From positions 1 through 64,000 of IMG/VR virus record IMGVR_UViG_3300028829_005098: 64,000 nt of DNA, one strand, 5' to 3'. This DNA is from a virus. The translations under genes were made by a program, and so were the position numbers. Each line of letters opens with the position of its first letter. Positions within the stretch are counted from its first letter, which is position 1. The notes under the pieces were generated by a model. That model made no database searches. It was not told the DNA's origin and worked only from the letters and a program-made list of their open reading frames with translations. Of this stretch, positions 26,299-55,068 are shown one piece after another.

Positions 26299-26601
26299 TT
26301 ATCTTAATTTACGGATTTCATTAAGACGAGTAGCAATATATTTATCTACACTCATTCCTAACATTTTTGCTTTTCGTTCTATTTCTTCTGGAGTACCACC
26401 GTATGTTCTTTGCAAATGCTTTAGCATCTGCATACGACTTTTTGCTACATCAACTGCAATGTCTTTCATCATTTTTTTGAATCTTGGGTCATGTTTTATG
26501 ATCGTAGATACCGAGTTTGTAGCACGATCAAACAATTTATTTACTACCCAACCCAATACTTCTTTTAATACTTGTTTATCTTGATTTTTGTTGTTTTTCA
26601 T
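26299..26601 (-). CDS. Hypothetical basic protein (100 aa)
   Basis: ORF between chaperone and tape measure; ATATTTAT at 26640-26647. Confidence 0.55.
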   Translation of the reverse strand: MKNNKNQDKQVLKEVLGWVVNKLFDRATNSVSTIIKHDPRFKKMMKDIAVDVAKSRMQMLKHLQRTYGGTPEEIERKAKMLGMSVDKYIATRLNEIRKLR

Positions 26602-26682
26602 GTTGTTTGCCTTTATAAAAAAAATTGCCGTATATATTGATAAATATACGACAATATAACTTTATTTGAAATTTATAGAAGT

Positions 26683-26941
26683 CTAACGATAACTTCGTTT
26701 ACCTGCACCTGTTGGTGGTCTTGCAGGTTTCTTACTACTAGATTTTGCTTCTTGTTGTGCCTTTTTTACATCTTCGTTTTCTTTGGTACGGACATCTACA
26801 AGTTTGCGTATATAGAATCTGCGAAGATATACTGGGAGATTATACACAACATCTTGCGTAAATGCTCCTTGACTGTAATAGCAGAGATTAAAAATCTCTT
26901 CGTGAAGTTGAATCTTATACTGAGGAGGAAGGGTAAAAAAA
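26683..26941 (-). CDS. Tail assembly chaperone C-terminal (T) part, probably reached by frameshift from the upstream chaperone
   Basis: LHEEIFNLCYYS...VYNLPVYLRRFYIRKL helical domain; no RBS-supported start; overlaps the upstream ORF at a T7 run. Confidence 0.65.
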
Positions 26942-27847
26942 GTCGACCCCAAGTGGGATCGTCATCCTTTCAGTATATCCTGTGTCCTCGGATTCAAAAT
27001 TAAATGTCATGTCTAAATCAGGTGTATTTTCCTTGATGTGTTCACGAAATGCCAAACTATCACGTGCTAGAAGTTCTTTATCAACAAAACTTTTGATTTT
27101 GTTTTTATCTTCATCACCATTGATTGCTTTAATTACATACTTTAAACGAGTTGTAACTTCTGAAGTTTCATTTTTATTTTTTGAAAACTTCTTTAATGCT
27201 TTCATTTCAGCATCAATGTTTTGTTCGTCTTGGTGTGTAAGTAAACTCCAATGAACTGTTTTCTTACTAAATGGTAGTTCATATGAAAACAAATTTCTTC
27301 CTTTTTCGTGATTATCGAAATTGAATTCTTTAGGTTCAACCAATGCCAAATCAATTGCATCTTCTACATCTTCGTTGTTGCTTGGATCTTTAAACTTAAT
27401 CTTATAGTCTTTACCATAAGCAAGAATACGAGCAGCTACAAAAATAGCATTTTTATCTCCAACGAGAATCTCATCAAGTTTTACTCCAGGAGTAACAATA
27501 AGTGCTTCTAGCAATTTATCTAACACAACACCTTTTTTAATTAGATTCTGACTTGTGAGAATATCTTCTTCACGTGCAGTCATGTATTTAATATCAATCT
27601 GACCACTTGCCAATGGTGAAGATGGATCATAAAACCAACCTTGACTTGGTAAATCAACAACCTCACTTGGAAATTCAAACTTCCTTGGTTGGTCACTTTG
27701 TTGTGTAAACACAGGTTCAGATTTAGTCTGTGTTTTAGGTTGTGTAGTAGCACTTTGAGTTGCTTCTTGAGTTTTAGCAGTTTGTGCGTCACGTTGAAGT
27801 GCTTTTTTCACTTCCTCGGGCATTTCTATATTATCGTTTGAGTCCAT
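26915..27847 (-). CDS. Tail assembly chaperone / T4 gp26-like baseplate hub assembly protein
   Basis: VDLPSQGWFY, IKYMTAREEDILT, GDKNAIFVAARILAYG, PDLDMTF; lies between tube and tape measure. Confidence 0.75.
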   Translation of the reverse strand: MDSNDNIEMPEEVKKALQRDAQTAKTQEATQSATTQPKTQTKSEPVFTQQSDQPRKFEFPSEVVDLPSQGWFYDPSSPLASGQIDIKYMTAREEDILTSQNLIKKGVVLDKLLEALIVTPGVKLDEILVGDKNAIFVAARILAYGKDYKIKFKDPSNNEDVEDAIDLALVEPKEFNFDNHEKGRNLFSYELPFSKKTVHWSLLTHQDEQNIDAEMKALKKFSKNKNETSEVTTRLKYVIKAINGDEDKNKIKSFVDKELLARDSLAFREHIKENTPDLDMTFNFESEDTGYTERMTIPLGVDFFYPSSSV

Positions 27848-27921
27848 AATTTTATAACCTTTTAATTTTTACTATCAATATAGTAGTCTAATATATATAT
27901 ATACAAGAAAAAAATTTTTTA

Positions 27922-28260
27922 TTAACCTGCAAGAGAAAATTTTAGAATTTCTTTGTGGTCATTATAATCAAAGAATGCTTTATCCTTTTTTCCTTTCCAT
28001 GTCTTAAAAGCAGTTACTCCGAGTTTACCATCATTGAATACTACTTTCTTACCACCCTTGGTAATAAATACCATTCTACCAGAGTTAGTATCAATATCAT
28101 AGTTTCTTTTAAACTTACCAATTTTTACTTGGCCTAACAAAAACTTTACCAAAGAAGAATATGCACTACCAAGTCCTTCAATTACTTGTTCTTCGTTATA
28201 CTCGGATTCAATCTCGTTTAATATAGATAATATTTCAGACTTTAGTTTTTCGTTTTTCAT
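27922..28260 (-). CDS. Hypothetical protein, candidate head-internal protein (start re-called at 28260)
   Basis: N-terminal KLKSEILSILNE helix, VIE|G site; TATTTAT 6 nt before ATG. Confidence 0.55.
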   Translation of the reverse strand: MKNEKLKSEILSILNEIESEYNEEQVIEGLGSAYSSLVKFLLGQVKIGKFKRNYDIDTNSGRMVFITKGGKKVVFNDGKLGVTAFKTWKGKKDKAFFDYNDHKEILKFSLAG

Positions 28261-28296
28261 ATAACAATAAATATATATTCCACGCAAAAAATAAAC

Positions 28297-28325: not shown

Positions 28326-28353
28326 AAAATTAAACTGAGATTTTGAATACAAA

Positions 28354-28845: not shown

Positions 28846-28882
28846 TTTTTTTATTCTCCAGTTTAATAGTTTAACTTTTAGT

Positions 28883-28963: not shown

Positions 28964-29668
28964 TTATGTTTTATCTTTTCTTAGTTTTTGTCCGATCAAT
29001 TTTGCCGAACCATATAATATTGCTCCAATAAATTGAACGTGTTGAGGACCAGGCCATGGGAATGTTAGTCCTAATACACCTGTCGCAAACAAAGTTAATA
29101 ATGCCATTCCTTCAGGACCAGCAAATAAAGTTGATAATGTAAATCCACCTCCTAATGCCATTATCATATCTCCCATATCAAAGTCATAATCTGCATTTCC
29201 TGTGAATGTCATATTTAACCAAATATAAATTAATATACCTGCTACTGCTAATCCTGCTATTCTTTTTGTTTTAGGATGCTTTGCTAAAAACGCATCTAAA
29301 TCTTTTAATTTATCTTCAGTCCATCGTCCTACCTTTGTACTTGAAATATATTCACCAATTGCTTTGATTACTTCTTTATATGCTTTGAATCCTTTTTTAA
29401 CTAACTTAAACAAATAGTCTAAACTAAATTTTATTTTTGCGAAAAATTTAAAAACAAGTTTATTTAAAAATAGTTTTACCATATCTACCATTTTAACTTT
29501 TATTATATCTTTTAGTTTTACAATAAAAGACCAAACTTTTTTGAGTTTACCTGGAATAGCAAATTCTTTTAATACGATAGTATCTTCATTTAGTTTATTT
29601 TCATATACAAAGTTACAGAATTCTTCATATTGAATTTCATAAACAATATCTGCAAGTGAGTTTTCCAT
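28964..29668 (-). CDS. Hypothetical membrane protein
   Basis: Hydrophobic segments IAGLAVAGILIYIWL, MALLTLFATGVLGL, FIGAILYG; TATTTAT 5 nt before ATG. Confidence 0.6.
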   Translation of the reverse strand: MENSLADIVYEIQYEEFCNFVYENKLNEDTIVLKEFAIPGKLKKVWSFIVKLKDIIKVKMVDMVKLFLNKLVFKFFAKIKFSLDYLFKLVKKGFKAYKEVIKAIGEYISSTKVGRWTEDKLKDLDAFLAKHPKTKRIAGLAVAGILIYIWLNMTFTGNADYDFDMGDMIMALGGGFTLSTLFAGPEGMALLTLFATGVLGLTFPWPGPQHVQFIGAILYGSAKLIGQKLRKDKT

Positions 29669-35979: not shown

Positions 35980-37485
35980 TTACAGAGAATCTGTACCTGT
36001 AACGGAGAGTTTTCCGTAGAATTCTGGACGAACCATCTTCTTAGCATAACGAGTCATTACTCCACGACGTGGTGTGAAGTTAACTGGATCGTATACCAAA
36101 GGAGTTTGGATCAACGGAATGTACGGAGCATAAACTGCACCTGTTTCAAGGAAGTTTGTTCCACGGAATCCAACAAGAACGTCACCACTTGTCATGTATG
36201 GGTTCTTGTAGACTTGGAAACGATTGTTCAATGCACCAACCTTGGTAACACCCATTGCGAACTGAGACTGATTTCCGTCTGTGTCAGCTGCATATCCTGG
36301 GATACTTTCAAGAACGGTAGCAACTTGTGGAGAACAAACCAAGAAGTTTGCACCACCACGAAGAGTCAATTGATGAATTGTGTTACTCACCTTTTGAATC
36401 TTTGTACCGAGTTTCTGAAAGAATGTTCCCTGGGTTTCACCACCAGTAAGAGCACCGTTTGCCTCAAATGTTCCACCGTCTGTGTGTGCGTTCACGATAA
36501 GCATATCAAGAATTTCCAAATCAATTTCCATTGAAACGTACTCAGAAAGAAGAGAAGTCAATTCTGCTTCTGCGTCAATACTATGATATGCGTTAAGGTC
36601 TTGTGCCAACTCAGGTGTCCAAACTGCTTTCAACTTACGTGTCTTTGCAACGATTGGTTCACTTTTGAGTTCCAAGTTTACTTCAGGAATACCGATGTCT
36701 TTTTGAAGACCTGTATCAGCTGCGTCAGTAGAGTTACCGAGATTATCTTCAAAGTCACCACGTGTGATGTCGGTTGTTTGTGCATGATAGTCAATATTTG
36801 TATTTCCTGTTGCGTCTGCAGCGACAGAAAGATTCACGGTTACATCACCACTTGCTTCGACATTAATTCCTGTGATGCTACCAACTGAAGATTTCCATGC
36901 TCTCCAACCATCAACATCAGCATTCAATGCTTTACCTAGAGTTGTGGTAGCAGTTGTTGTTGCTTCCCCTTCTCCTGCACTTTCAACTGTCATTGCTACA
37001 GTTGCTTGTTTGTCATTGATTGAGTAACCATGACGTCCTGCTCCGTAAAGACCACCTGTTGCTTGGTCGGTTGAACCGAGTTTTGCGTCTGATGTTCCAC
37101 CGAAAAGACTCTCACTTGATCCTTGAAGTGACTGATTTGTTCCATACTTAAAGTCTAAGTAGAAAATCAATCCGGATGGAAGATTCATTGGTTGAACGGA
37201 AACGAATTCCTTTGATGCGATTTCTGCGAATACACGACGAACGAGAGGAAGTGCTACTCCACTCCATTCTTCTGATCCAGAAGATGTTCCTGTGCGTGAT
37301 GCTTCATCGATCAACTGCTTTGCTTGGTTTTCTAAAAGAATGGACATACCACTCTTTTCTGTGTCTGTTGTAATACCTTCAAGAAGTCCTGTTTTTTCCC
37401 ATTTTGTTACCAAACCACGGGTTTCTGCCATAAGACGTGCTTGAGGATTACTACTTTCTTTTAATAATTTACTGATTTCACTCAT
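35980..37485 (-). CDS. gp23: Major capsid protein (T4 gp23-like)
   Basis: LPLVRRVF, VSVQPMNLPSGLIFYL, AKTRKLKAVWTPELAQDLNAYHSIDAEAEL, YAPYIPL, FTPRRGVMTRYA. Confidence 0.97.
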   Translation of the reverse strand: MSEISKLLKESSNPQARLMAETRGLVTKWEKTGLLEGITTDTEKSGMSILLENQAKQLIDEASRTGTSSGSEEWSGVALPLVRRVFAEIASKEFVSVQPMNLPSGLIFYLDFKYGTNQSLQGSSESLFGGTSDAKLGSTDQATGGLYGAGRHGYSINDKQATVAMTVESAGEGEATTTATTTLGKALNADVDGWRAWKSSVGSITGINVEASGDVTVNLSVAADATGNTNIDYHAQTTDITRGDFEDNLGNSTDAADTGLQKDIGIPEVNLELKSEPIVAKTRKLKAVWTPELAQDLNAYHSIDAEAELTSLLSEYVSMEIDLEILDMLIVNAHTDGGTFEANGALTGGETQGTFFQKLGTKIQKVSNTIHQLTLRGGANFLVCSPQVATVLESIPGYAADTDGNQSQFAMGVTKVGALNNRFQVYKNPYMTSGDVLVGFRGTNFLETGAVYAPYIPLIQTPLVYDPVNFTPRRGVMTRYAKKMVRPEFYGKLSVTGTDSL

Positions 37486-37515: not shown

Positions 37516-38829
37516 TTATGATTTAATACCTGCAAGTTTCTTGAATCTGTTAGCCATTTCATCGCCTTCAGATAAAATTCTCTTGGAGGGTTTTGTTGAT
37601 TTTATTGCCTTGGATGCAATTCCTTCGGTCAAAGGATTCTTTTCAGTTTTTTCCTTTTTAACTGTGTGTGTGTTTTTAACAGACTCAGTACGAGAACCGA
37701 ATGATTCACCCAATGTTGCATATACTAATTTTGCTTCACGAACATTCTTTGTGAGATCAAAACTTTCTACAACTTTTATTTTTTGTTCTTCATTTAATCC
37801 AAATTTCTTAAACAACTTATTTGTATAAAGCAATTTTGCATTAAGAAGATTTACTTCATTTAACTTACCTCGCAAAAATTTATAAACCTTGCGGTATTCA
37901 TCATTTTCTTTTTGAAGCTTTTCGTTTTCAGTTTTAAGTTCAGAAATTTCTGAATCACCTTCTGCTTCTTCAATTTTGGTTTCTTCTTCAAGTTCCTTGA
38001 GGATTTCTTCAAGATTGATTTCTTCATCGTCTGATTCATCGGATTCTTCTTCTGCATCTTCTTCTTCGGATTCTTCTTCAGATTCTTCAGATTCTTCTAC
38101 AATTTCTAAATCTATTTCTTCATCAATTTCAGCAACTTTTTCGCAGTTGTCATCTTCGTTTCCAACTTCAGCACTCTGTTTCTTGGTTTCTGGTGGTAAT
38201 TCTTCATCGTCACTATCTGCGATATTTACGTGTTCGTCTCCACCTTTGCCAAGTTCACTTGAACTTGATTGTTCTTCGATTTCTTCTGCTTCTTCTTCTT
38301 CTGACTCATCGTCTTCGGAACATGATGATTCTTCAATTGTCTCTTCCTCTTCTTCAGACTCTTCGTCTGCATCTGCGGATTCTTCAATTGCTTCTTCTTC
38401 TTCTTCGTCTTCTACATCAAGTTCTTGTTCAAGTTCTTTGATGATAGATTCCAAATCAAATGAATCTTCTTCAATATCTTCCTCTTCTTCTTCGTCAGAA
38501 AGATCAAGTTCTGGTTCTTCAGATGCTACTTCTTCTTCATCGGCAACTTCTACTTCATCAGATACTTCAACTTCATCTTCTGCTGGAATTTCTTCCTCTG
38601 CTTCACCTTCGTCGTCTTCGGAGTATGAACCCTCTTCAACTTCATCAGAAACTTCTACTTCTTCTGATTCTTCGTCTTCAAGATCAAGTTCTTCTTCTTT
38701 CAACTTCTTGGTAAGCATACTCTGTAAACGTGGTGCGAAAGCTTCTTCAAGAGCAAGTCTTGCATTTGCAAGAGCTGTCTCACGAACTGCCTTAGCGTCC
38801 ACCATAGCTTCTTTAAGTAATTTACTCAT
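37516..38829 (-). CDS. Prohead core scaffolding protein (very acidic)
   Basis: Directly upstream of capsid gene; Glu/Asp-rich centre, C-terminal coiled coil LNEVNLLNAKLLY, ends RFKKLAGI. Confidence 0.8.
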   Translation of the reverse strand: MSKLLKEAMVDAKAVRETALANARLALEEAFAPRLQSMLTKKLKEEELDLEDEESEEVEVSDEVEEGSYSEDDEGEAEEEIPAEDEVEVSDEVEVADEEEVASEEPELDLSDEEEEEDIEEDSFDLESIIKELEQELDVEDEEEEEAIEESADADEESEEEEETIEESSCSEDDESEEEEAEEIEEQSSSSELGKGGDEHVNIADSDDEELPPETKKQSAEVGNEDDNCEKVAEIDEEIDLEIVEESEESEEESEEEDAEEESDESDDEEINLEEILKELEEETKIEEAEGDSEISELKTENEKLQKENDEYRKVYKFLRGKLNEVNLLNAKLLYTNKLFKKFGLNEEQKIKVVESFDLTKNVREAKLVYATLGESFGSRTESVKNTHTVKKEKTEKNPLTEGIASKAIKSTKPSKRILSEGDEMANRFKKLAGIKS

Positions 38830-41523: not shown

Positions 41524-42393
41524 TTAAGAATTTCTTATTCTAAAAAAGGTATTAACGACTTCATATAAATCGTTAGTATTTCCTAGTAATTCACCTTTAT
41601 TATTTTTTACTAAATAAAAATTATCACTATATAAAATCTCATTTAAACGCACGTCGTTTTTGGTAATTTCAAATTTATATGTATTATTTTCAGTCAATGT
41701 ATAAGTAAAGTTACACTCGTTTTCTTGTAATAAAATTCTAAAATGATTTAAAGTATCCTCACTCAAACTTTCACTTGGAACTTTTTCTGGTAAATCATCA
41801 TGTTTTGTTTTTGCCATTTTCTTTGCGTCATCGTCACCGATATCATTAGCAAGTTTTTTAATCTTAGAATATAAATCAGCATCTATATCAGATTTTTTTA
41901 ATTCACCTGAATTATATGCGTGAACCATTCCAAATAATCTTTGTTGTGATTTAGAGACGGACTTTTCTGAGATACTTTCATTTGCTTCATCTTTCTCTTC
42001 GTCTTCATCTTCCTCTTCTTCGTCTGAGTCGGGATCGTCTGTTGGTGGTTCTTCAGTTTTTGATGCTCCATCTCTAGGACCACCCTCTCCTTTCTCACCT
42101 GCGGGGGTGGGTTTTACTTTGTCAATTTCTGAATCGTGTGTATCATGAATTTCATTTTCATCATCAATACCAAGTTCCATCATGGCAACACCTAGTTTTA
42201 CTTTCTTTAGTAATTTTACTACATCTCTCCAATAATCACCGGATAGTTTTTTTCCTTCCTCTGTTTTATGAACAGACGAAATTGACTGACTGAGTTTTTT
42301 AAGCAGGTGTTTGTATTCTTCTATATATGGATCAGCAGACTCTTTAATTTCAGAGTCTGTCGTATCGCAGGTGCCACATCCACATTCGCACAT
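41524..42393 (-). CDS. Modular hypothetical protein containing a DUF3008-like peptide
   Basis: MCECGCGTC start, acidic linker, KSVSKSQQRLFGMVHAY...AKTKHDDLPEKV module. Confidence 0.55.
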   Translation of the reverse strand: MCECGCGTCDTTDSEIKESADPYIEEYKHLLKKLSQSISSVHKTEEGKKLSGDYWRDVVKLLKKVKLGVAMMELGIDDENEIHDTHDSEIDKVKPTPAGEKGEGGPRDGASKTEEPPTDDPDSDEEEEDEDEEKDEANESISEKSVSKSQQRLFGMVHAYNSGELKKSDIDADLYSKIKKLANDIGDDDAKKMAKTKHDDLPEKVPSESLSEDTLNHFRILLQENECNFTYTLTENNTYKFEITKNDVRLNEILYSDNFYLVKNNKGELLGNTNDLYEVVNTFFRIRNS

Positions 42394-42789: not shown

Positions 42790-43269
42790 TTACCTTAGTT
42801 CTTTTATTTTTCTTGAGATGTTTTTTAATTTTTCATCAATCTTTAGCAAATGCTTACTTGTTGTTTTCCACATTTTACTAGTATGTACTTTTGATTCACC
42901 TTTATACCTAGACGATACATTCAAAAGTTTATCTATTTCAGATACTAATTTTCTAATTTCTCGCACTGCAACACCAACCTTTTGCTCGGGTAGTAAATCA
43001 GGATGATCACGAAATATATGATATAAACTTTTTCCTTCGTTTAATTTTATAGTATTTGATTTTTCATTTTCAGTTGTTTTATAGTCAAATACTTCTGCTC
43101 TTTTTTTCTCTCTATCTTTATGAGATTTGTTCTTTTTACTAAAAGCATGAGGTGTTGAATAACCTTGAACGTTTGCAGTTACATTTATCTCTGAAATTTC
43201 GTCTTCATCAAGACACTCTTCGAATATAGACTTTATTAAATCTTTTAACTCACTTTTCTTTATTTGCAT
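42790..43269 (-). CDS. Hypothetical head-region protein
   Basis: ELKDLIKSIFEE N-helix, ISE|INVTANVQGYSTPHAF, C-terminal coiled coil. Confidence 0.6.
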   Translation of the reverse strand: MQIKKSELKDLIKSIFEECLDEDEISEINVTANVQGYSTPHAFSKKNKSHKDREKKRAEVFDYKTTENEKSNTIKLNEGKSLYHIFRDHPDLLPEQKVGVAVREIRKLVSEIDKLLNVSSRYKGESKVHTSKMWKTTSKHLLKIDEKLKNISRKIKELR

Positions 43270-44186: not shown

Positions 44187-46025
44187 TTAATTTTGTTTGT
44201 TATTGGTTGTAGATTCCGTTATATGTTTCTCATCAGAATCTTTGTTTTCTTCACACAATAACTTTGACATTTCATTATCAGTTTTGCGTTTTTTTCCAAG
44301 AAAATCATCTAGTTTCTTTAAATCAGATTCTAATTTTAATGGAGAATCACCCCAATCACGACCATCAACTCTTCTTTCGTCTGCACCTAGTCTATCACGA
44401 CCCATTGGTTTTTCATCAGGATGATCGTACTTTTTATTCGCATTTTTTCGTTTCTTTTCTTCTTTTTTTCTATCTTTGATTCTTTGTTGATGCTCTTCAT
44501 CTGTTTCGTTTTCAAACTTACCAAATCCCCAACTTTCATCATCACCTAGTTCTTCACCATCTTCCTGTGAGGGATTTGCGGGATCATTTCCTTCGTTTTG
44601 AATACTTTCTAATCTAAAGAACTCTTTGGCATCATCTACAAAGTTATTTCGTATTTCATTAACTTCATCTTCAGGTAATCCAAATATTTTATCATAAACC
44701 CATTCTTTAGAGAACATTTTAGCATCTATCATATCACGTGCAGTATTTAATTTTTCGGAAAGAATTCTAACTCGTTCTTCTTCAAATATAGTAGATGGAT
44801 TTGTTAATTGTAAACTAAAATCAACCAACTTAGCATCAGTATAACCTTGTGAATATAAATGAACAACTGCGATCTTGGTTAATTCACTTATCATTATTCT
44901 TTGTAATCTTTCAATAGTTCTAGCAAATCTAATATCTTCGGCTGCGAGTGTTGCTTTACCTGTTATACTTTCATCATATCCAAGAAATGCTTTAGGAACT
45001 TTAAGTGCGGCCATCATTTTGTTTTTAACATACTCAATATCCTCAGTTCCATCGTAAGTCATTGCACCAAGATTTTCAATACGAGTACCACTATCTCCAC
45101 CACGAACAGGCATGAAGAAATCTTCAGTCATGTTTTGTAGATTGAATTTAAGATTATAGTCCCCTGTTTTTTCATCTACAAACGGAACTTTTTTCATTTT
45201 AGTCATAACTTTTTGCATAAAGTTATCAACCTCATTCGGTGGAATATTACCAATATCAATATAAAACATTCTTTTTTCAGGTGCTCGCATGATTCTGTGA
45301 ATAAGCATAGCATCTTCCATCAGTTGAAGTTGTTTCCATGTTCTGCGGGCAGGTTCTATCATACTTTTCCCATATGGAAGATAATTGGTATCACCAAGCA
45401 TTCTAAAGTGAGCAATTTCATAGTTTTCGTATTGTGCTTTAGTAGAACCTTCTTGTTTGAATACAACTAGATTAGGATTTGCAGGATCCATATCTTCTAT
45501 ACGAATCATTTCGTATGTCGAAACGGGTTTTACATTTAATACACCGTACTCTGGTTCAATTTCTAAATGTAAATAGAAATCTCCATATTTACACATATTG
45601 CGAGTCCATCCCCACAAATTAAACTCTACATTTAATATATCGTAAAATAAATTCTCTAGTATTTTTTTTACATTTGAATCTTTACTTTTAATTTGTAGTA
45701 TTTCTCCAAATTCACTTCGTGTAGTAGATTCATCGGCATAAATATCTAATGCACTTGATATAATTGGATCAGTATCCATTATTTCATAGTCACTAAATAA
45801 TTCAAGTCGTGCAGTTTGAAATCCTAAATTATTAAATCCACTTGCATAATCACTAAATAGTGTATGCATTCTGTCGTATTTATCTCTTGTTTTCTTAGAG
45901 TATTGTAAACGATCTGTATCTACTACTTTAGACTTTTTTCCACCAATATTTCTAACAACTACACCTGTTGAAAATAGTTTCTTTAAACCACTAAATAGTT
46001 TTTGTGTTCTGTTTTGTTCTGCCAT
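44187..46025 (-). CDS. gp20: Portal protein (T4 gp20-like)
   Basis: IISSALDIYADE, LMEDAMLIHRIMRAPEKRMFYIDIGNIP, EDFFMPVRGG, ALKVPKAFL, EDIRFARTIERLQ. Confidence 0.96.
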   Translation of the reverse strand: MAEQNRTQKLFSGLKKLFSTGVVVRNIGGKKSKVVDTDRLQYSKKTRDKYDRMHTLFSDYASGFNNLGFQTARLELFSDYEIMDTDPIISSALDIYADESTTRSEFGEILQIKSKDSNVKKILENLFYDILNVEFNLWGWTRNMCKYGDFYLHLEIEPEYGVLNVKPVSTYEMIRIEDMDPANPNLVVFKQEGSTKAQYENYEIAHFRMLGDTNYLPYGKSMIEPARRTWKQLQLMEDAMLIHRIMRAPEKRMFYIDIGNIPPNEVDNFMQKVMTKMKKVPFVDEKTGDYNLKFNLQNMTEDFFMPVRGGDSGTRIENLGAMTYDGTEDIEYVKNKMMAALKVPKAFLGYDESITGKATLAAEDIRFARTIERLQRIMISELTKIAVVHLYSQGYTDAKLVDFSLQLTNPSTIFEEERVRILSEKLNTARDMIDAKMFSKEWVYDKIFGLPEDEVNEIRNNFVDDAKEFFRLESIQNEGNDPANPSQEDGEELGDDESWGFGKFENETDEEHQQRIKDRKKEEKKRKNANKKYDHPDEKPMGRDRLGADERRVDGRDWGDSPLKLESDLKKLDDFLGKKRKTDNEMSKLLCEENKDSDEKHITESTTNNKQN

Positions 46026-46083: not shown

Positions 46084-46689
46084 TTAAAAATCCGCATCAC
46101 TGGCAGCATTAATTAAATCACCCCCATCAAAGCTTTGAAGGGGTCCTAATGGATTTCTTTGCTTTTCTAATTTATCTATATTTTTTTCACCTGAATATAA
46201 AACATACTCCACCACATCATCTACAATCATAATTAAGCACGAAAACTTCCATCCTGTGATGTGTGTATCTTTTCTGAAATTTAATGCATCTAATAGATAA
46301 CTTCCCTCTCGTTGTTTTACAATTCTTTCAAGATTAACTTCATATGCTTTTAACTTTTCACGTGCAGCCAAACTTGTTATAACTCCCTCAGGTAAATCAA
46401 TATTATTAAATAATGTGTATCGTGAGGGACTATCTAATTTAAACTTTGACATAATATCAAGATAAGTTAATTTTTTTACATTTGCCATATTTTCTAAATC
46501 TATCCCCATATCCAATAAATCTTTATTTGTAGTTTTTCCTAGTTCAATTTTACCTATATCGTTTTCTATTGTATCAAAACTCATATATTTTGATTCAGTA
46601 TAAGTCACAGAACTTGGAAGTAATCTTTTATTATTACATCCACATAAAAGTAAAGCACACAAACAAATTGTTATATTTAATATTTTCAT
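46084..46689 (-). CDS. Predicted lipoprotein
   Basis: Signal peptide with lipobox LLLCG-C; GGAG RBS; C-terminal RNPLGPLQ. Confidence 0.7.
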   Translation of the reverse strand: MKILNITICLCALLLCGCNNKRLLPSSVTYTESKYMSFDTIENDIGKIELGKTTNKDLLDMGIDLENMANVKKLTYLDIMSKFKLDSPSRYTLFNNIDLPEGVITSLAAREKLKAYEVNLERIVKQREGSYLLDALNFRKDTHITGWKFSCLIMIVDDVVEYVLYSGEKNIDKLEKQRNPLGPLQSFDGGDLINAASDADF

Positions 46690-46699: not shown

Positions 46700-48295
46700 C
46701 TATTGTAATAACCAATCTAAACTCTCAGTTCCTCCGTGTGGATTTCTCATTTCATATGGATTACTTGCTAAACCAGAGTTGTGATAGTTTTTTCCTACGT
46801 TCATGTTTGTTGTACTTCCCATATAATCAAATAAACTTTTTTGAGTTTGGACATTTTCATTTCTAAATCTAAGTGCAGTATCACGAACCCACAGAGATAT
46901 ACACAAACTCATTACCAAATCATCATTATATCCTTGCATTGCTTCTGCTCGTTGTCCGTTCCATATAAAAGTAAATAATTCATCCGTTGTTCGTTCTGAT
47001 AAAATGTTAACTTCCTTTTCACGAATATATTGTTCCATTTTACTAATAATAAGTGGACGTGTTTTAATAGATGTTGTGAAACCAGGAACTTGTTTCTTTT
47101 CCATACGATTTAGTTTATTGGTATGTTGTGAAAATTCATCTATATACTGATAATCACGTTGTGTATAATATAAATTGTTGTATCCTTTATCTATAATTTG
47201 TTGCAATACTGCCCAACCTATATTGGCATTTTCCACAACTAATAATGCTCCGTTGAATTCACTTGCCACCGCAACCAAAAGGTTTCCAAAGTCTTTAGTT
47301 TCAATTTCACCTTTAAATTCAGCAACTTGCTTTACATTTTCTACATCAAATACATGAAATGCACTTTTGTCACGTCCATCTCCACGTGCAACATCGGCTG
47401 CTACTACATAATCTTTGTTATGATTGGGATATTCCCATATCCAATATTCTTTATTTGCACCTCGTTTTTCAACAGGTTCTTGTACCATATTTTCTTTATA
47501 CCATTCTAACAAACTTGCATCTACAACAGAACGACCACTGCTAATAAAGTCACAATCACATTCTTGCGCCGCATCTTTTTCACCAAGAACTTTTGTTTGT
47601 AAATCTCTCCACTTTTGATCTCTATCAGGATGCAATGACCAATGCAAATTGATTGGATTAAAGTCATTTGATCCGTCCATAGTACCAACCCAAGTTTTGT
47701 GGAAAAAATTACCGATACCATTTGGAGTAGATAATAGAATAGAACGACCACCCGTTGTAATTGTAGATTGCGATGCAGTCCATATGTCTTCCATGTTTGT
47801 AATAAACGCACACTCGTCCACGATAAGTAAACTCAATGATGACGAACGAGAAGCATCTACACTACTTGAAGCCGCACGAATATTACTTCCGTTTTTAAAA
47901 CGCATACTAAGTTTGTTTTTTTCTGTACACTCATTTCTCAACCAACTTGGTAAATGTTCGGACATATGGGTTACTTTAGTAACAATATTTTTTGCAGTTT
48001 CTTGGTTAATAGCAATACACAAAATAGATTTATCTGTAAAAAAGGTCATTAACCACAATGCATAACCAGATACAAGTGTAGATATACCCATTTGTCTTGC
48101 TTTTAATACAATATTAAATTGTTCGTCACGAAAACTTTCAAGGGTTTTTGATTGAAAATCGTATAATGCAAATGGAATAGTACCCAGTGTAGGGTGTTGA
48201 ATTTTGCAGTATTTTTTCATAAAGTATGAAGGTGACTTCAAACACTCAGCATACTCTTCTTTGATTATTTCTCTTAATGGTTTATTAGTTGCCAT
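46700..48295 (-). CDS. gp17: Terminase large subunit (T4 gp17-like)
   Basis: LYDFQ, KARQMGIST, LLIVDECAF, LSTPNG, QECDCDF, ADVARGDGRD, VVENAN, DDLVMS. Confidence 0.96.
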   Translation of the reverse strand: MATNKPLREIIKEEYAECLKSPSYFMKKYCKIQHPTLGTIPFALYDFQSKTLESFRDEQFNIVLKARQMGISTLVSGYALWLMTFFTDKSILCIAINQETAKNIVTKVTHMSEHLPSWLRNECTEKNKLSMRFKNGSNIRAASSSVDASRSSSLSLLIVDECAFITNMEDIWTASQSTITTGGRSILLSTPNGIGNFFHKTWVGTMDGSNDFNPINLHWSLHPDRDQKWRDLQTKVLGEKDAAQECDCDFISSGRSVVDASLLEWYKENMVQEPVEKRGANKEYWIWEYPNHNKDYVVAADVARGDGRDKSAFHVFDVENVKQVAEFKGEIETKDFGNLLVAVASEFNGALLVVENANIGWAVLQQIIDKGYNNLYYTQRDYQYIDEFSQHTNKLNRMEKKQVPGFTTSIKTRPLIISKMEQYIREKEVNILSERTTDELFTFIWNGQRAEAMQGYNDDLVMSLCISLWVRDTALRFRNENVQTQKSLFDYMGSTTNMNVGKNYHNSGLASNPYEMRNPHGGTESLDWLLQ

Positions 48296-49004: not shown

Positions 49005-49412
49005 CTATTTTGTCAAAAGGAAATTAAACTTTTTTATGGATTCTTTTAAAAAACAATTTATCAAAAAGTTATGATATTGTTTTCTGTATTTTTCTTTTTG
49101 TTTTTCTGTAATATCTCTTTTTAAAAATGATAGTTCGTTTGAGCATATTTCTTCATCGTAAATATCATATTCTAATATTGAAAATATTTGTTTCAACGAC
49201 AGATGAGTTTCGTAGTAGTTATATGAATTTCGTATTATTAACTGAATATACTTTGAACGTTCTCGTATTTCTTCTATAAATTCTCTGTCAAGATAGGGAA
49301 TTTTTTGTGGAAGAGTTGCACGATGTGATGTATTAAATAATACAATAACTTCATTTAATACGTCATAAACTTCTTGTGCAGTTAAATAAAGATTTCCATT
49401 TAATTTAATCAT
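49005..49412 (-). CDS. Hypothetical protein
   Basis: 135-aa ORF overlapping the upstream stop. Confidence 0.45.
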   Translation of the reverse strand: MIKLNGNLYLTAQEVYDVLNEVIVLFNTSHRATLPQKIPYLDREFIEEIRERSKYIQLIIRNSYNYYETHLSLKQIFSILEYDIYDEEICSNELSFLKRDITEKQKEKYRKQYHNFLINCFLKESIKKFNFLLTK

Positions 49413-50649
49413 TATTGTTTTTAAACTTTTTTCTATCGTAGACTTTTTTACTTTTCATAGGTCTACTACTAGGAAGTGTAGGTTTGCGAATCTTTTTATA
49501 TGCATCCATTTTTGATATAAGTTTATTTCTTTTAGATTCCGACAATTTTTTAATTTTGTGAACAAGCATTTTTATATACTCCTTTTTGCTTCCTCTTCCT
49601 TTGAAGTATGAACTTTTATCACTTAACATTTTTGCAATATCAAGCATTCCTTGTAAGTCTTTTAAATTATCTTCTTTTTCTTTATCTTCCATTTTTAAAT
49701 CCTCGTCAATAGGTCCGTCTATTTTGGTAAATTCTACATAATAATTTCCATCACTATCTTGTATTATTTTACCACCAACTTCTTTTGAATGCTTTTTAGC
49801 ATCTTCTTTATTTTTAAATTTCAAAGGTTCTATATTACCATTTTTATTTGTACCAGATAAATTTGCTTCACCACCACCTACATTATGTTTACTTATATTA
49901 AACTCTTCGGTAAAAAATCTATTTTTATTTAGTGGTGATAAAGCCGCACTCGTTCCAATAGTAACTAAACGATTATATCTTATAAGTTGATCTATAATAG
50001 AAACAATGTTATTCATAAAAGGTTTTTTTTCAAGTTCAGGTATTTCTTTTTCTATATTACGAATTGTTTGTTGTAAATGACCTTTACCGAATTTTTCGTC
50101 TTTTATCATTTTTAGTATACCCGGATACTTTCGCTTTATTAGTTCGTATGTTTTCTTGACATTAAATTTTGTTTCACGTGAGTTAAACTTATCATGTACC
50201 ACTTTTGCAAGAGTTGTAGTTATCCCCACCACACCACCAACTGCAGCCACAATAGACGCAATCGTTAATGGATCAACCGATTCATTTATATTTACTTCTT
50301 TATCCGAACTGTTTCTTATTTTTGCTACCCTTGCTTTTTCCTTCTTCTTAACTGCGGGTAGCATTCGTTTTGCTAATTTAGCAACTAAACCTTTTTTATT
50401 TGCAAGTTTCTTATCGATCAATTCTTTCTGACCTACACTTAAATCTTTATAGGACTTTCCACCTGCCATCTTTTTTACTATTAGTGTTTTGGCAGCCTTC
50501 TCAGCAGATGCTTTTAACTTTGCAGGACTTTTCATTCTTTTGGCAAATAACTTTTTCTTGGCTGCTCGTTTTTTTGCAGTTCTTCTTGCGGCCTGAGAAA
50601 GTTTGCGTCTTGCGATTCTTGATAATTTTCTTTCTGCTTGGTCTTCCAT
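49405..50649 (-). CDS. Modular hypothetical protein with highly basic N-terminus (weak resemblance to T4 gp68-type core proteins)
   Basis: Lys/Arg/Ala-rich first 110 aa, hydrophobic segment after INE|S, further modules split by FTEE, IDE, LSE. Confidence 0.55.
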   Translation of the reverse strand: MEDQAERKLSRIARRKLSQAARRTAKKRAAKKKLFAKRMKSPAKLKASAEKAAKTLIVKKMAGGKSYKDLSVGQKELIDKKLANKKGLVAKLAKRMLPAVKKKEKARVAKIRNSSDKEVNINESVDPLTIASIVAAVGGVVGITTTLAKVVHDKFNSRETKFNVKKTYELIKRKYPGILKMIKDEKFGKGHLQQTIRNIEKEIPELEKKPFMNNIVSIIDQLIRYNRLVTIGTSAALSPLNKNRFFTEEFNISKHNVGGGEANLSGTNKNGNIEPLKFKNKEDAKKHSKEVGGKIIQDSDGNYYVEFTKIDGPIDEDLKMEDKEKEDNLKDLQGMLDIAKMLSDKSSYFKGRGSKKEYIKMLVHKIKKLSESKRNKLISKMDAYKKIRKPTLPSSRPMKSKKVYDRKKFKNNND

Positions 50650-50650
50650 A

Positions 50651-53158
50651 TCAGAATCTCATTATACCCATGATTTGGTTAATGGGAGCAAATGTTCCTG
50701 TAAGTTTATATGTTCCACCTTTGTATTGAAATACAACACCTTCTGTTGGTGCGATTGACTTGCTTCCTCCGATAGCATTTAAACGAGCAAGATTTTTATT
50801 TAGTTTCTCCATGTCTTTTTTAAACTTATCAGGAGATTCCACCGAACTTAGTTTCTTGCCTTCAAGTGTTTTAACATGAGCATCAAGTGCTTTTGCTATA
50901 TCATCACTTCCACCAGCCGCAACGAATCCTTTTACGTTCTGAAGAACTTCCGCACCTAATTTCAAAAAGATAAATTGAAATGGCCACATATTTTCTTCAA
51001 ATTGTTTTACTAAATCTTCTTTATCAAATTTATTAACCCATGCTTTTAATTTAGGTTGTTTTTCTAAATCCATACGAATTGTGGTAATTTTATTTGATTT
51101 GTCATTATATGCCCAACGACCTATCAATGCTTCAAATACTTTTGGTGGAAACGTTTCTTTTGATTTATTTTGTTGTTTATTTAATAAATCTCTCCACCAA
51201 GCATCGTGATACTTCATCACTTTATCGTTGTCTTTTAATTTAAATTTCTTTTTTAGTTTATCAAGCATTGCAGAATATTTTGAAAACGAATCACCAAAAC
51301 TTTTACTTTTAGGAAGTTCCACCACAATCGGTGCATTTAATGAATATCTTTTTTGAACATCTGCATTTACTTGCTTTAACATACCTTTAAGCATTCTAGC
51401 AGAGTCTTTTAATTCTGCGGTAATATCGTTTCCATCGGAATCTTCACTTACTGCTTTTCCTGCGGAATTGTATGCCTGTGTTCCGTGAAATACCAACATA
51501 TCTACATTCTGAGGAATAACATTTTGAGTTGCGGGTGTCATTACCTCTATATTCATAAAACGTTCACCTTCTTTGAATACCTTACTTCGTTGTTTTTCAC
51601 TCAACTTGGATATAGCAGATTCTAAATCAGTAACTGCACTCACGAACGCATCACGAATGTTTTCGGGACGATCAGCAAATATACTTTCAAATTCTTTTAC
51701 ATTAGGAGCGGCTGCACCTGCGTTTTTTAAATGCCCTTGATTTCTTGCAGCCACTAATTGTCCATCTTTCCAAGAAAACATTAAATTTTGACCATCTAGT
51801 TTTTCAGTTACTTCTTTTTCAACATTTAATTCACCAGACAACGACCTGCGAATCATTTCTTTTAAATCAGCAAATGTTAAATCCCGATCATCGAAAGGAT
51901 GACTCATATGACCAGCCGCACCTCCTTCTGTTAATAATACTTCGTTGATAGCATGACCTTCTACACCTTTATCTATTTCTTCATCATCTTCTGCTTTGTC
52001 GGTATCTATGGTATTTGTTCCTGATCTTAGATCTTCATCTCCTTGTTCATCTTTCTTACGAATTGATTTTTCAGAACCAAGAAAATCTACAAGTTTATAT
52101 CCTGCAGTTTCTGCAACACCATTTATGAAATTGACCCACTGAGTGTGTGCTGATTGTGATTTCTCAAAATCTATTTGATTCATTGGAGTATTTGCATCTA
52201 TATCTCCTGCAGGATAAAAACTTACCGCAGGAACTGGTCCTGCATATTTTCCCCATTCACGATAATCTGCATTACGACCTAATCCATGTTTTCCTACTAC
52301 ATAGTCAAGTAAATCATAACCTAATTGTTGTGCTCGTTTACTTGTATTTCCTTCGTATGATTGTCCAGGGTAAAACATACTTGGTCCATCGTCAACCATT
52401 GTTTTTCCAAGAGCAGAAATTGAACTTATTTCATTAAGAAGTGTCGGTATACTATTCACGAACTTCTTAAATTTTGGATATTCTTTTAAAAATCCTTCAA
52501 ATATTTCTTCATTTTCAAATAAAGTTGCAAACTTTTTTGTTAGATAGTCATAGATCTTTTCATCATACCAACCAAATAATTCTTTGAATGCTTGTTTTCT
52601 TTGTTCATCGGAATACTTTGGACTTCCAAGCAAGTCACGAATTCTTGTTCCACTTACTTCCCCACCGAGAACTTTAATGCTTACATGAGGAGCAACGATA
52701 AAGTATCCATGTTCTGCATATGGTTTTAATTTACCTTTATTTTTAACATATGACTGATAATAAGCAGGTGAACCATCTGCTTTCGTGGTTTTTAATCTAC
52801 CTGCATCTTTTTCTCCAAATATATAAATAACCGCAGTTGTGTTTGGATCATATTTTTTAAGTATCTCTTCACATACATATGGGTTTTTTACTTGAACTAC
52901 ATTTTTTACTTTGTGCTTTGTCCATATCATTTTCTTTTCTTTAAAGTTCAATGGACTTTTAGAAGAGTCGGTTTTATTGCTAGTTGCTACATATGCTTTA
53001 TCAAATTTTCCGTCCAACCATTTATAGGTTTTATAGTGATGCACACCCGCGGGTTGAAATCTACCTGGATAAATTCCAATTATTTTTCGTATTTTACCTT
53101 CGTTTAGTAGATTGTCTACAAGAAACTCAGATAATTTATCTGTGAAATCATCATTCAT
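50651..53158 (-). CDS. Fusion of HIGH-superfamily (cytidylyltransferase-like) nucleotidyltransferase and a ligase-fold (KxDG) domain
   Basis: IYPGRFQPAGVHH, SPLNFKEK, VSGTRIR; later GGAAGHMSHPFD, TEKLDGQN (motif I), FMNIEV, TEGVVF (motif IV), YKLTG (motif V). Confidence 0.7.
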   Translation of the reverse strand: MNDDFTDKLSEFLVDNLLNEGKIRKIIGIYPGRFQPAGVHHYKTYKWLDGKFDKAYVATSNKTDSSKSPLNFKEKKMIWTKHKVKNVVQVKNPYVCEEILKKYDPNTTAVIYIFGEKDAGRLKTTKADGSPAYYQSYVKNKGKLKPYAEHGYFIVAPHVSIKVLGGEVSGTRIRDLLGSPKYSDEQRKQAFKELFGWYDEKIYDYLTKKFATLFENEEIFEGFLKEYPKFKKFVNSIPTLLNEISSISALGKTMVDDGPSMFYPGQSYEGNTSKRAQQLGYDLLDYVVGKHGLGRNADYREWGKYAGPVPAVSFYPAGDIDANTPMNQIDFEKSQSAHTQWVNFINGVAETAGYKLVDFLGSEKSIRKKDEQGDEDLRSGTNTIDTDKAEDDEEIDKGVEGHAINEVLLTEGGAAGHMSHPFDDRDLTFADLKEMIRRSLSGELNVEKEVTEKLDGQNLMFSWKDGQLVAARNQGHLKNAGAAAPNVKEFESIFADRPENIRDAFVSAVTDLESAISKLSEKQRSKVFKEGERFMNIEVMTPATQNVIPQNVDMLVFHGTQAYNSAGKAVSEDSDGNDITAELKDSARMLKGMLKQVNADVQKRYSLNAPIVVELPKSKSFGDSFSKYSAMLDKLKKKFKLKDNDKVMKYHDAWWRDLLNKQQNKSKETFPPKVFEALIGRWAYNDKSNKITTIRMDLEKQPKLKAWVNKFDKEDLVKQFEENMWPFQFIFLKLGAEVLQNVKGFVAAGGSDDIAKALDAHVKTLEGKKLSSVESPDKFKKDMEKLNKNLARLNAIGGSKSIAPTEGVVFQYKGGTYKLTGTFAPINQIMGIMRF

Positions 53159-53673
53159 TTAGATTTCAAAACTTCAGATAAAATTGTTCTTATTTGTACT
53201 CGTAGCTTTTCTTCGTAAACTTTTCTTTCTACAAACTTATTGAATTCACCCTTTGACATATCAGATACATAATCTGCCATATCCTCAAATCCTTTTCGTT
53301 CTAACCAAGAAATAACTTTATCTTTTGCTTTTAATACACTTGAATGTAATCCTGACATAAAACTTATTGCTTTTTTATATTCTGGACTCGTTAACTTTAT
53401 TTCATTTACTTCTTTCATTTTTGTTTCCTCATATAGTGACATATAAAAATCTTCGTCAGAACTTGCGGATTGAAAATCACGATATGCTTGTTCTGCTTCT
53501 TTTCCCACGAGTATTACTTTGCCCCTTGGGAAGTATAATATTTCATCTCCTTTTTTAAATTTCACTCCTCCTTTTCTTAGTCTTCTTTGTACAGGTAATC
53601 TTTGTTCACCAGAAACTCCGTCATATTTTGACTTCATCCAAACTGGATCATCTTTATATCTTGCTTCGTTCAT
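53155..53673 (-). CDS. Hypothetical protein (start re-called at MNEARY)
   Basis: ATG directly after upstream stop; YKDDPVWM...KKGDEILYFP module; C-terminal KLRVQIRTILSEVL helix. Confidence 0.55.
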   Translation of the reverse strand: MNEARYKDDPVWMKSKYDGVSGEQRLPVQRRLRKGGVKFKKGDEILYFPRGKVILVGKEAEQAYRDFQSASSDEDFYMSLYEETKMKEVNEIKLTSPEYKKAISFMSGLHSSVLKAKDKVISWLERKGFEDMADYVSDMSKGEFNKFVERKVYEEKLRVQIRTILSEVLKSK

Positions 53674-53674
53674 A

Positions 53675-54028
53675 TCAGTCTTCAAAGTATTCAATTACTT
53701 TTCCTGTTTTAATATTATTTTTGCAGGCTTTTCGTTTATCACGATGTAGATGTGGTGCTTTATCAAGATACTCTGTGGTACAATGAAATATATAACCATC
53801 CACCACAGGACCTTCTGTTGTTTCTCCTTCACTATATACTCCGATAAATTTAAAGTCATCTTTTTCTTTTTTAACAAATTTGCTTGCAAGAGACTTTGCC
53901 CAATTTTCATTTCCTGCTTTTTTTGAAGAATAACTATATCTAGAATGATTTGGTGCTAGTTCAAGTCTCCAAGTTTCTCCAAGTTTTTCTTCTTGAATTA
54001 ATTCATCTAATATTTTTTCAAAATTCAT
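53675..54028 (-). CDS. Hypothetical protein
   Basis: ATGA-coupled to the kinase gene; N-terminal FEKILDELIQEE helix. Confidence 0.55.
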   Translation of the reverse strand: MNFEKILDELIQEEKLGETWRLELAPNHSRYSYSSKKAGNENWAKSLASKFVKKEKDDFKFIGVYSEGETTEGPVVDGYIFHCTTEYLDKAPHLHRDKRKACKNNIKTGKVIEYFED

Positions 54029-55068
54029 TTTTCACCCTTAAACTTTAATGAACGAATTTGGTGAAAGTATTTTACGATCTGATTCCTTGATAAATTCAGA
54101 CTTTCTACCAATCTCGATAATACCGCAAGATTTCTTCGTTCGTTTAATTTAAATTTTCTAATTACATAAATAGACCTACTCAAATGTCTTTCTAAATCCA
54201 TAGGAAGAACGACATCTTCCATAGAAACTATATCTAATTCCTCATTCACACGATTTCGTTTATCACCACTCTTAGTCATTTTATCATGTGCCATCATCAT
54301 TTGTATCCACTTTTTACCAATTGGATTTCGTATGGGTTTTGCAACAAATCGTGCAGTTGCTTTTAAAACGTGTGGAACTAAATCTAGTCTTCCTGGTTTC
54401 TTTTTACTACGAGTATCTTCAGAGTTATCTACAATAACAAAGTTTTTTCCAAATGAACCTTGAAACTTACCAAGATTTTTTTGTACATCGGTCCAAATAT
54501 CTTTTACTATTTTTCTTGGAAGTTTTCTTTTACGCATTGCGTTTCTTTGTTGTGCAACTTCAAGTGTTGTGTTAACAAACACCATATAACAATCGTATCC
54601 AAGTTTTTCTAGTTCTTTCTTTTGCTTAGATATTTTGTTATAGTTATCACCAGTTCCATCAACAATAACACCAAGACGATTATTTTTAAACATTTCAAAT
54701 TGTCTTAACATAATTTTCTTTGCACGGGAACGAATACTATTTGGATCACCACTTGTCACTTTGCTAAATGTTTCATCGTCCATTTTGGATAAATTTAAAT
54801 CGTATCCTGCTTTCTTTAGAAGTATTTCAAACGCAGGATCACTATTAACTATCTTTAACCCACTTGGAGACAAATTAGTTGCTTCGGGTGGAAAATCAAA
54901 TATTGTATCAACGGTAGCAGATTTACCAGATCCAGGACCTCCCGCTAAAAATACTGCTTTTAGAATACCAGGATCATACACACCCTCTACAAGTGTAAAA
55001 TATCCTTTACGCAATCCTGCTTTAATCAGGGTTTCTTTGACTTCTTGGTTTTTTTCGGAATCTTCCAT
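54025..55068 (-). CDS. P-loop kinase of the zeta-toxin / polynucleotide-kinase-like group
   Basis: KAVFLAGGPGSGKS, IVNSD..FE, VIVDGTG, VFVNTTLEVAQQRNAMRKR (lid), IVDNS. Confidence 0.75.
   Translation of the reverse strand: MEDSEKNQEVKETLIKAGLRKGYFTLVEGVYDPGILKAVFLAGGPGSGKSATVDTIFDFPPEATNLSPSGLKIVNSDPAFEILLKKAGYDLNLSKMDDETFSKVTSGDPNSIRSRAKKIMLRQFEMFKNNRLGVIVDGTGDNYNKISKQKKELEKLGYDCYMVFVNTTLEVAQQRNAMRKRKLPRKIVKDIWTDVQKNLGKFQGSFGKNFVIVDNSEDTRSKKKPGRLDLVPHVLKATARFVAKPIRNPIGKKWIQMMMAHDKMTKSGDKRNRVNEELDIVSMEDVVLPMDLERHLSRSIYVIRKFKLNERRNLAVLSRLVESLNLSRNQIVKYFHQIRSLKFKGEK

Follow-up and report, generated by a model that had tools for sequence, protein, structure and literature searches.

Probable capsid-targeting and maturation leaders of the T4 type in an enlarged and modular protein set of an uncultured marine Far-T4 phage

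Do phage proteins that are otherwise unrelated share a terminal signal that directs them into the assembling head and marks the point at which they are cut? The question is raised by positions 1 to 64,000 of the IMG/VR record IMGVR_UViG_3300028829_005098 (115,415 bases in total, completeness estimate 58%), a stretch referred to below as the window. A preliminary description had noticed one amphipathic helix recurring at the termini of a dozen proteins, with recognisable domains beginning right after a hydrophobic-x-Glu motif, and had proposed a general system that loads modular polyproteins into the prohead, cuts them and injects the products with the DNA. Our analysis makes it likely that these helices are T4-type capsid-targeting and maturation leaders, carried by an enlarged and modular cargo set; the mechanism is of the known T4 type and not a new general system, and it is from T4 that we infer packaging, cleavage after Glu, retention in the head and injection. 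Numbering throughout refers to window positions, PHI stands for a hydrophobic residue and an arrow (↓) marks a predicted cut position.

Nearly all genes of the window lie on the minus strand. Pfam and PHROGs recognised a T4-type head and tail core among the window proteins, comprising the major capsid protein of the gp23 family (35980-37485, minus strand), the prohead protease (Peptidase_S77; 40820-41449, minus strand), a gp20-type portal (44187-46025) and the large terminase (46700-48295), together with sheath and gp19-type tube genes. The named phages nearest by capsid protein are Flavobacterium phage immuto (54.7%), Microcystis phage Mel-JY01 (51.7%) and Rhodothermus phage RM378 (45%), which assigns the window phage to the "Far-T4" group; the source is an uncultured marine T4-like "Far-T4" myovirus. 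Its cultured relatives immuto and Mel-JY01 show the same gene layout and similar leaders.

The prohead protease, 209 residues long, is of the T4 gp21 / Peptidase S77 type: it matches PF03420 with 96.5 bits (cut-off 27), phrog_207 with an E-value of 3.9e-53, and the solved structure of T4 gp21 (PDB 5jbl) with an E-value of 8.6e-17. Its GELDHP (His76) and SSRG (Ser129) motifs align with GELNHP (His85) and SSRG (Ser140) of T4 gp21, where we take the His and the Ser to be the catalytic residues, and GEL.HP and SSRG are both kept in all 64 distinct relative proteases. The protein ends with an amphipathic helix, KVESIIHDILGE (40832-40867, residue 195 of 209), and the tail CKVE(S/G)II(H/N)(D/E)I(L/M) was found in 52 of 52 distinct C-termini. 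Just before the helix lies a C-x3-C (GRVCTKYCKVE), conserved across the clade, which is a possible metal or disulfide site.

The ten helix strings of the preliminary description were all found at the places claimed, in minus-strand open reading frames (ORFs). Six lie within the first 25 residues of their proteins (genes ending at 39642, 40390, 40817, 43269, 28287 and 54028), two at C-ends (that of the protease and one at residue 163 of 179, in ORF 53155-53694), and the remaining two are internal to the scaffold (37516-38829). When anchored on their last Glu, the helices share the register PHI(-10)..PHI(-7)PHI(-6)..PHI(-3)PHI(-2).E; positions -6 and -3 are hydrophobic, and position -2 is hydrophobic or Ala, in 9 of 9 non-scaffold helices, the leader of protein p835 (see below) included. 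The six N-terminal leaders and that of p835 end with PHI-PHI-x-E within the first 25 residues, and the amphipathic helix is 12-18 residues long in the window. The same register is occupied in the T4 capsid targeting sequence (CTS), whose residues 4, 7, 8 and 10 correspond to -6, -3, -2 and 0 from the Glu: in the T4 sequences, ipII, ipIII, alt and gene 24 carry PHI..PHI-PHI.E ending at residue 10, and the same motif stands at residue 65 of gp23 and at residue 21 of gp68. The DNA coding for the leaders is not shared, its mean nucleotide identity being 48%, with a maximum of 75% between the two scaffold islands, and no common leader-DNA cassette was seen. The leader proteins of the window sit in separate BLAST families. 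A scan for the T4 late-promoter word TATAAATA returned 9 minus-strand matches, none of them upstream of a leader gene.

The position of tagged ORFs was analysed in 80 IMG/VR loci, obtained by a protease search (60-89% identity) out of about 990 stretches estimated to match. ORFs starting within 100 bases of a locus edge were removed before counting, and the term "slot" denotes the region between the portal and capsid genes. A short pattern, [LIVMFY]..[LIVMF][LIVMF].E, built from known T4 sites only, was present at the N-terminus of 172 of the 447 slot ORFs. The flanks gave 7/193 (upstream of the portal) and 4/78 (downstream of the capsid gene), 11/271 together, and the conserved core genes 35/346. 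When ORFs were grouped into BLAST families, 11/38 slot families carried the motif in at least half of their members, versus 0/27 flank families (Fisher 0.0017). A longer pattern of 11 residues was found at the N-terminus of 58/447 slot, 1/271 flank and 0/346 core ORFs. In more distant relatives many small unrelated proteins begin with M(I)KLKxLLxE, ten residues like the T4 CTS; in 346,937 residues the 8-residue core of this pattern, which was written after the data were seen, occurs 70 times N-terminally and 6 times internally, in 9 families. A family-weighted position histogram of the pattern derived from the window's own leaders shows an N-terminal excess of only about fourfold, because this pattern misses the leader variants of the relatives.

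Five proteins of the head slot, p159, p152, p244, p200 and p289, all encoded on the minus strand, are firm members of the tagged set. The first of them, p159 (42790-43269), starts with the leader helix ELKDLIKSIFEE (43216-43251), followed by an acidic linker and by the site EISE↓INVT (E27, codon 43189-43191). Homologues are present in 70/81 loci. In an alignment of 33 sequences Glu27 never varies; it stands in (I/L)-x-E, ahead of (I/A/V)(N/S)(V/T)T. Upstream of this site the helix is retained as well, even where close relatives have a variable acidic insert of up to about 30 residues between the two, and its conservation despite this separation points to a function of the helix over and above that of the cut site. 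In the AF2 model, residues 5-19 form a helix, 20-81 are disordered and 94-158 make a confidently modelled helical hairpin; the predicted mature part is basic, with an isoelectric point (pI) of 10.0, and the protein has no Pfam or PHROG match.

In p152 (40359-40817), the N-terminal leader LIKSTILEVLKE↓E (40761-40796) is retained in close relatives, while distant members of the family begin with MSKKIKLKDLLEE instead. The leader of p244 (39656-40390), ELKKFVRKVLLE↓R (40319-40354), is kept in 11 distinct N-termini among the matches listed, from 16 loci; the true start of this gene is probably the ATG at 40366, because relatives begin with MNKSELKKF. The acidic p200 (39040-39642; pI 4.7) has the leader ELKELVEEVANE (39589-39624), and then four repeat units, with PHI-x-E↓G immediately ahead of each (E23, E58, E93 and E149). 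Throughout the family, PHI-x-E precedes 65 of 65 repeat units (15 distinct members), a hallmark of precursors that are processed to small peptides, and p200 is probably such a precursor of small internal peptides.

A different arrangement is seen in p289 (41524-42393), where a Cys-rich acidic N-terminal extension ends with ESISE↓KSVSK (E143, codon 41965-41967) and is followed by a DUF3008-like domain, which falls below the Pfam cut-off for DUF3008; several PHROGs match residues 131-207. This domain begins at residue 5 in 6 distinct relatives and is internal in 11 (p289 itself included); the internal domain follows an extension of 125-200 residues, with PHI-x-E just before the domain in 9 of the 11. 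The extension of p289 also holds an N-terminal Cys cluster, MCECGCGTC, a possible metal or disulfide site. Another protein, of 414 residues (49405-50649, minus strand) and with an overall pI of 10.1, is very basic in its N-terminal third and contains a hydrophobic segment; in two relatives (L018 and L020) its YVEFTK(L/I)DGPI(T/N)E stretch is directly joined to the DUF3008-like domain.

Look-alike helices are found inside the acidic scaffold (437 residues, 29% Glu; 37516-38829, minus strand), whose gene is flanked by the small genes on the protease side and by the capsid gene. Its N-terminus reads MSKLLKE↓A (E7), and it holds two helix islands, DLESIIKELEQE (38422-38457) and NLEEILKELEEE (37981-38016). 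Conservation of the protein is poor, its acidic stretches varying between relatives; the exceptions are both ends and one or two DLDLE(E/S)I(L/I)KELE islands, the latter present in 24/24 distinct scaffolds. A position-specific scoring matrix built from distant p159 leaders gives the second island the highest score of the genome (16.5, followed by 14.1 and 5.6). As a general leader finder this matrix was discarded, being too family-specific and missing the other leaders; its strong matches are limited to the scaffold island and a coiled stretch of a 2245-residue protein (19528-26265), the latter probably ranked second because of its coiled-coil composition. In immuto (NC_055915), a 154-residue protein (L002, 4777-5241) begins with MKKQILSEQFRRMQKLAGIITE, a copy of the C-terminal tail of the immuto scaffold (…SEQVSRWQKLAGIIK), which suggests a second, scaffold-tail type of leader. 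No such mimic (RFKKLAGI-type) was found at N-termini in the clade of the window, where 25 of 25 occurrences are scaffold C-ends; the one case is in immuto.

The major capsid protein (501 residues; Pfam Gp23 E-value 4.6e-84, domain from residue 72) has a predicted propeptide cut at QLIDE↓ASRT (E61, codon 37303-37305), eleven residues ahead of the Gp23 domain, and a second motif, MSEISKLLKE↓S, at E10. The first site is kept as ENQA(K/R)QLIDE↓(A/S/G) in 16 IMG/VR relatives, among the matches listed, and reads QIVSE↓A in immuto.

Upstream of the terminase, on the same strand, p835, the kinase p347, p117 and p179 are probable members of the set, less certain than the slot proteins. In p835 (50651-53158) the leader LSEFLVDNLLNE↓GK (E20, 53099-53134) precedes three domains, arranged as a nucleotidyltransferase-like domain with a HIGH motif, the junction IPTLLNE↓ISS (E243), a middle domain, the junction EVLLTE↓GGAAGH (E411), and a ligase-like domain with KxDG. 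In a family alignment of 20 sequences, PHI-PHI-x-E is found at E243 in 20/20 and at E411 in 18/20, and PHI-x-E at E20 in 17/19; the ligase-like domain of the family begins with GGA(Y/A)GH. The names nucleotidyltransferase-like and ligase-like are weak assignments. Pfam matches to a cytidylyltransferase-like family and, for the C-terminal domain, to DNA_ligase_aden and RNA_ligase are below cut-off, and NCBIfam gave nothing above cut-off for the ligase-like domain; K-x-D-G is invariant in 25 sequences. The AF2 model of this domain has a pLDDT of 66 and its best Foldseek match is a tRNA ligase adenylyltransferase domain, with a weak E-value of 0.08; VIA aligns ligases to it at Z 4.3-4.7, within noise.

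The neighbouring p347 (54025-55068) is soundly predicted to be a P-loop kinase of the Zeta-toxin/AAA_33 type (Pfam Zeta_toxin, E-value 1.4e-11). Its kinase domain starts after FTLVE↓GVYDPG (E28, codon 54985-54987), a junction kept in 5/5 close relatives, which inside polyproteins reads NINE↓GVNDPG or SVNE↓GINDPG. The leader of p117 (53675-54028), NFEKILDELIQE↓E (53990-54025), is kept in 5/5 orthologues from longer relatives. In p179 (53155-53694) the helix is C-terminal, KLRVQIRTILSE↓VLKSK (53173-53208), and 5/5 orthologues keep it with IL(S/T)E and 4-5 further residues. All the domain starts claimed in the preliminary description, at LLNE↓GK (E20), LLTE↓GGAAGH (E411), LVE↓GVYDPG (E28), ISE↓KSVSK (E143) and LIDE↓ASRT (E61), thus proved real and conserved.

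In relatives, kinase, nucleotidyltransferase, ligase and other modules are joined in one chain of 1000-1300 residues, with variable inserts, which reach about 400 residues between the middle and ligase-like domains. A 234-residue protein with hydrophobic segments, encoded between the sheath and tube genes of the window (28964-29668, minus strand), is homologous (38% identity, E-value about 2e-25) to an insert module of the enzyme polyproteins of two relatives (L076 and L077); the same module is thus free in the tail region here, and part of a putative cargo precursor elsewhere. It is conceivable, though rather doubtful, that the clade packs an enzyme kit, in which a leader-bearing precursor of P-loop (PNK/Zeta-like) kinase, HIGH-motif nucleotidyltransferase, middle and ligase-like domains is cut by the prohead protease at its conserved PHI-PHI-x-E sites, and the resulting single enzymes enter the cell with the DNA. 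The precursor would be one chain of 1000-1300 residues in the relatives, split over neighbouring genes here, and the enzymes might, for example, mend cut tRNA or restore nucleotide cofactors before phage gene expression.

The steps envisaged for the whole set are as follows. The leader helix would bind the assembling scaffold core, so that the protein is built into the prohead; the S77 protease would then cut after Glu and free the mature protein or peptide from the core, while also chopping the scaffold and the multi-module precursors into pieces. Small fragments would exit the head, and basic or folded pieces would stay with the DNA, some of them entering the host. Several features agree with the general modular loading, cleavage and injection system of the preliminary description, namely an S77 protease with catalytic His and Ser, L/I-x-E endings in the CTS register, unrelated proteins concentrated in the slot, shuffled and fused modules with PHI-x-E junctions, and the look-alike islands of the scaffold. 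The mechanism itself is already known, the CTS having been suggested as a general protein-loading route of T4-like phages (PMC9026906, in the part drawn on here).

The main alternative is that the head-slot leader proteins, most of all p159 and p200, serve as building blocks of the scaffold or core, like T4 gp67, gp68 and gp22, which are cut up and expelled; the helix would then be an element of core self-assembly, and the idea of effector delivery would be wrong. We consider this clearly the less probable explanation, but a serious one. The near-universal presence of p159, at a fixed place beside the portal-side p289 gene, resembles that of a structural core gene more than that of changeable cargo, the acidic, repetitive p200 would end up as short pieces, and the scaffold itself holds look-alike helix islands; the T4 core proteins gp22, gp67 and gp68 are indeed described as cut into several fragments, which mostly leave the head (PMC9026906, in the part drawn on here). 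On the other hand, the 11 slot families tagged in at least half of their members are variable, unrelated and small, which is the pattern of the T4 internal-protein loci; the mature part of p159 is basic, as DNA-associated internal proteins are; and the kinase, nucleotidyltransferase-like and ligase-like domains, which have no obvious scaffolding role, carry the same junctions.

A number of observations weigh against the capsid-targeting reading as a whole. By hhalign, neither the scaffold against T4 gp22 (probability 0.3%) nor the p159 family against T4 gp68 (0.07%) shows detectable homology, so that the parallel with T4 is one of position and motif only. Our search of the literature found no virion proteome of the clade of the window. 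At the level of single sites, position -2 from the last Glu of p200 holds Ala in place of Leu or Ile, although LVEE is also present at E14, and among 8 distinct full N-termini in the p835/polyprotein family the motif was found in only 2 (two more end with TLGE and four look truncated). Three sites of the earlier list fared poorly. The kinase junction of p347 has no clear amphipathic helix before it. The ILGE ending of the protease tail is limited to the close group, the terminal Glu being missing in distant relatives, and for this reason the tail resembles a targeting helix more than a cut site. Finally, the gene of p121 (27922-28287, minus strand; likely start ATG 28260) lies between the tail tube and baseplate hub genes, which makes its membership uncertain; its leader, KLKSEILSILNE↓I (28213-28248), is kept in 3/3 orthologues, always in the tail module, and p121 may be unrelated to the tagged set. 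Elsewhere in the record, outside the window, a 132-residue protein encoded among baseplate genes (G000:C1:83985-84383, minus strand) begins with MKKQELIKIIREAVKLELKATLPNILSE, a leader-like helix with PHI-PHI-x-E at E12 and E28.

The patterns themselves are also of limited specificity. Genome-wide, the 11-residue pattern is no more frequent than in shuffled proteins (6 matches versus a mean of 4.9 in its strict form, 9 versus 8.7 in its loose form); the excess is one of placement, since 4 (strict) or 6 (loose) matches end in the first 30 residues, versus shuffle means of 0.41 and 0.61, and the observed N-terminal count was reached by 0 of 300 shuffles. As the pattern was written from the same window instances, this placement test is partly circular. 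The short pattern gave 21 matches ending in the first 30 residues of own-genome proteins, where its internal rate predicts 4.1; the 18 proteins concerned, of 99, include the terminase and four genes outside the structural blocks. In T4, with 60 genes examined from two genome slices, it matches the N-terminus of 13, of which 5 are gp21 substrates and 8 are not known to be such. Since the short pattern is not specific, the useful result is the contrast between gene classes, with matches in 4/7 portal-to-scaffold ORFs of the own genome and in 4/56 of the remaining ones (Fisher 0.0035).

These figures are what would favour a second explanation, by which the N-terminal helices are a by-product of composition, that is of Lys/Glu/Ile/Leu-rich N-termini in an AT-rich genome, and have no targeting or cleavage role. 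It is very improbable, because flank genes of the same contigs, with the same composition, carry the short motif far less often than slot genes, the long pattern is N-terminal in 4/7 slot proteins and in 0/56 of the remaining proteins of the own genome, the junction Glu residues are invariant inside poorly conserved linkers, and the 8-residue leader core of the distant relatives is overwhelmingly N-terminal. A third explanation, by which helix and PHI-x-E are a protease-recognition or inhibitory propeptide only and other protein parts ensure loading, can draw on the conserved internal junctions, where the motif works away from termini, and on phage SPN3US, which packages 42 uncut head proteins, so that loading need not depend on a cleaved leader (PMC10052503, in part), but is just as hard to sustain, given that in T4 the first 10 residues suffice for packaging and targeting and processing residues differ (PMC9026906, in part), that the p159-family helix is kept at a distance from its invariant cut site, and that the protease tail helix is conserved in distant relatives without a cut site.

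Other features of the region deserve mention. Between the terminase and portal genes, ORF 46084-46689 (minus strand) encodes a predicted lipoprotein of 201 residues (signal-like N-terminus with Cys), conserved in 18 loci. The 2245-residue ORF at 19528-26265 (minus strand) lies in the position expected for the tape-measure protein, and the same record contains a second very long ORF, of 3386 residues (G000:C1:69525-79685, minus strand). In more distant relatives a small gene similar to ribosomal protein S21, with no counterpart in the window, lies between the protease and the scaffold (L024, 9142-9330; L029, 7419-7604; 16 further loci; and Mel-JY01, L094, 6188-6415, annotated RpsU).

If correct, the capsid-targeting reading extends the "address tag plus clip" mechanism of T4 to uncultured marine Far-T4 phages, for which about 990 IMG/VR stretches are estimated to match the protease. 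It would offer a sequence-based rule for recognising the dark-matter genes that code for internal head proteins in these phages, and it supplies exact predicted neo-N-termini. Should the enzyme precursors be loaded and cut as well, the phages would deliver a set of kinase, nucleotidyltransferase and ligase with their DNA, a pre-made cargo of a new kind. Another possible use of the tags is the loading of foreign proteins into the capsids of phages of hosts other than E. coli.

How does this set compare with known systems? A full-text literature search found no paper on such leaders in Far-T4 or uncultured phages, and in the main text of the Far-T4 paper PMC4360716 the words protease, internal protein and scaffold are absent. 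The closest system is that of T4, where, in the part of PMC9026906 drawn on here, gp21 is described as cutting after L/I-x-E, and the CTS as the first 10 residues of IPIII, which are sufficient to package foreign proteins, residues 4 and 7 being the main ones for targeting, and 8 and 10 those for processing. The CTS of IPI-III, the propeptides of Alt and gp24, and gp21 share with the window an S77-family protease and the cut after Glu in L/I-x-E; the N-terminal position, the hydrophobic register at -6, -3 and -2, and the use of one tag on unrelated proteins are also common to both. T4 gp21 and Alt are processed at the C-end too (PMC9026906, in part), that is the protease and one cargo protein, and the parallel here is given by the protease tail and p179. 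The differences are that window leaders have 12-18 residues instead of 10, the 10-residue M(I)KLKxLLxE being used by more distant relatives; that more families are tagged here, and helix and cut site can be separated by a linker; and that here the motif also stands at internal junctions of multi-domain enzymes and repeat precursors. The analogy of the scaffold and p159 with gp22 and gp68 is one of position only, and the window system, unlike that of T4, is known from sequence alone.

The giant phages phiKZ, 201phi2-1 and SPN3US likewise have a diverged gp21-type protease that cleaves after Glu and processes many head proteins, with several sites per propeptide and a large internal protein load thought to be ejected (PMC9026906, PMC10052503, both in part). 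Their motif, in contrast, is S/A-x-E with few other determinants, the cuts reported for SPN3US give N-terminal propeptides only (PMC10052503), and the passages of PMC9026906 and PMC10052503 covered here make no mention of a shared helical leader. The window phage is also much smaller than these phages, and its gene order is T4-like.

A looser likeness is offered by the C-terminal targeting tail of the HK97 prohead protease and by the cargo-loading peptides of encapsulins, where entry of a protein into the growing HK97-fold shell is specified by a short peptide at its end. Such tags attach to the shell protein itself, with no Glu-specific cut after them. The C-terminal helix that is conserved in the window protease fits the same idea.

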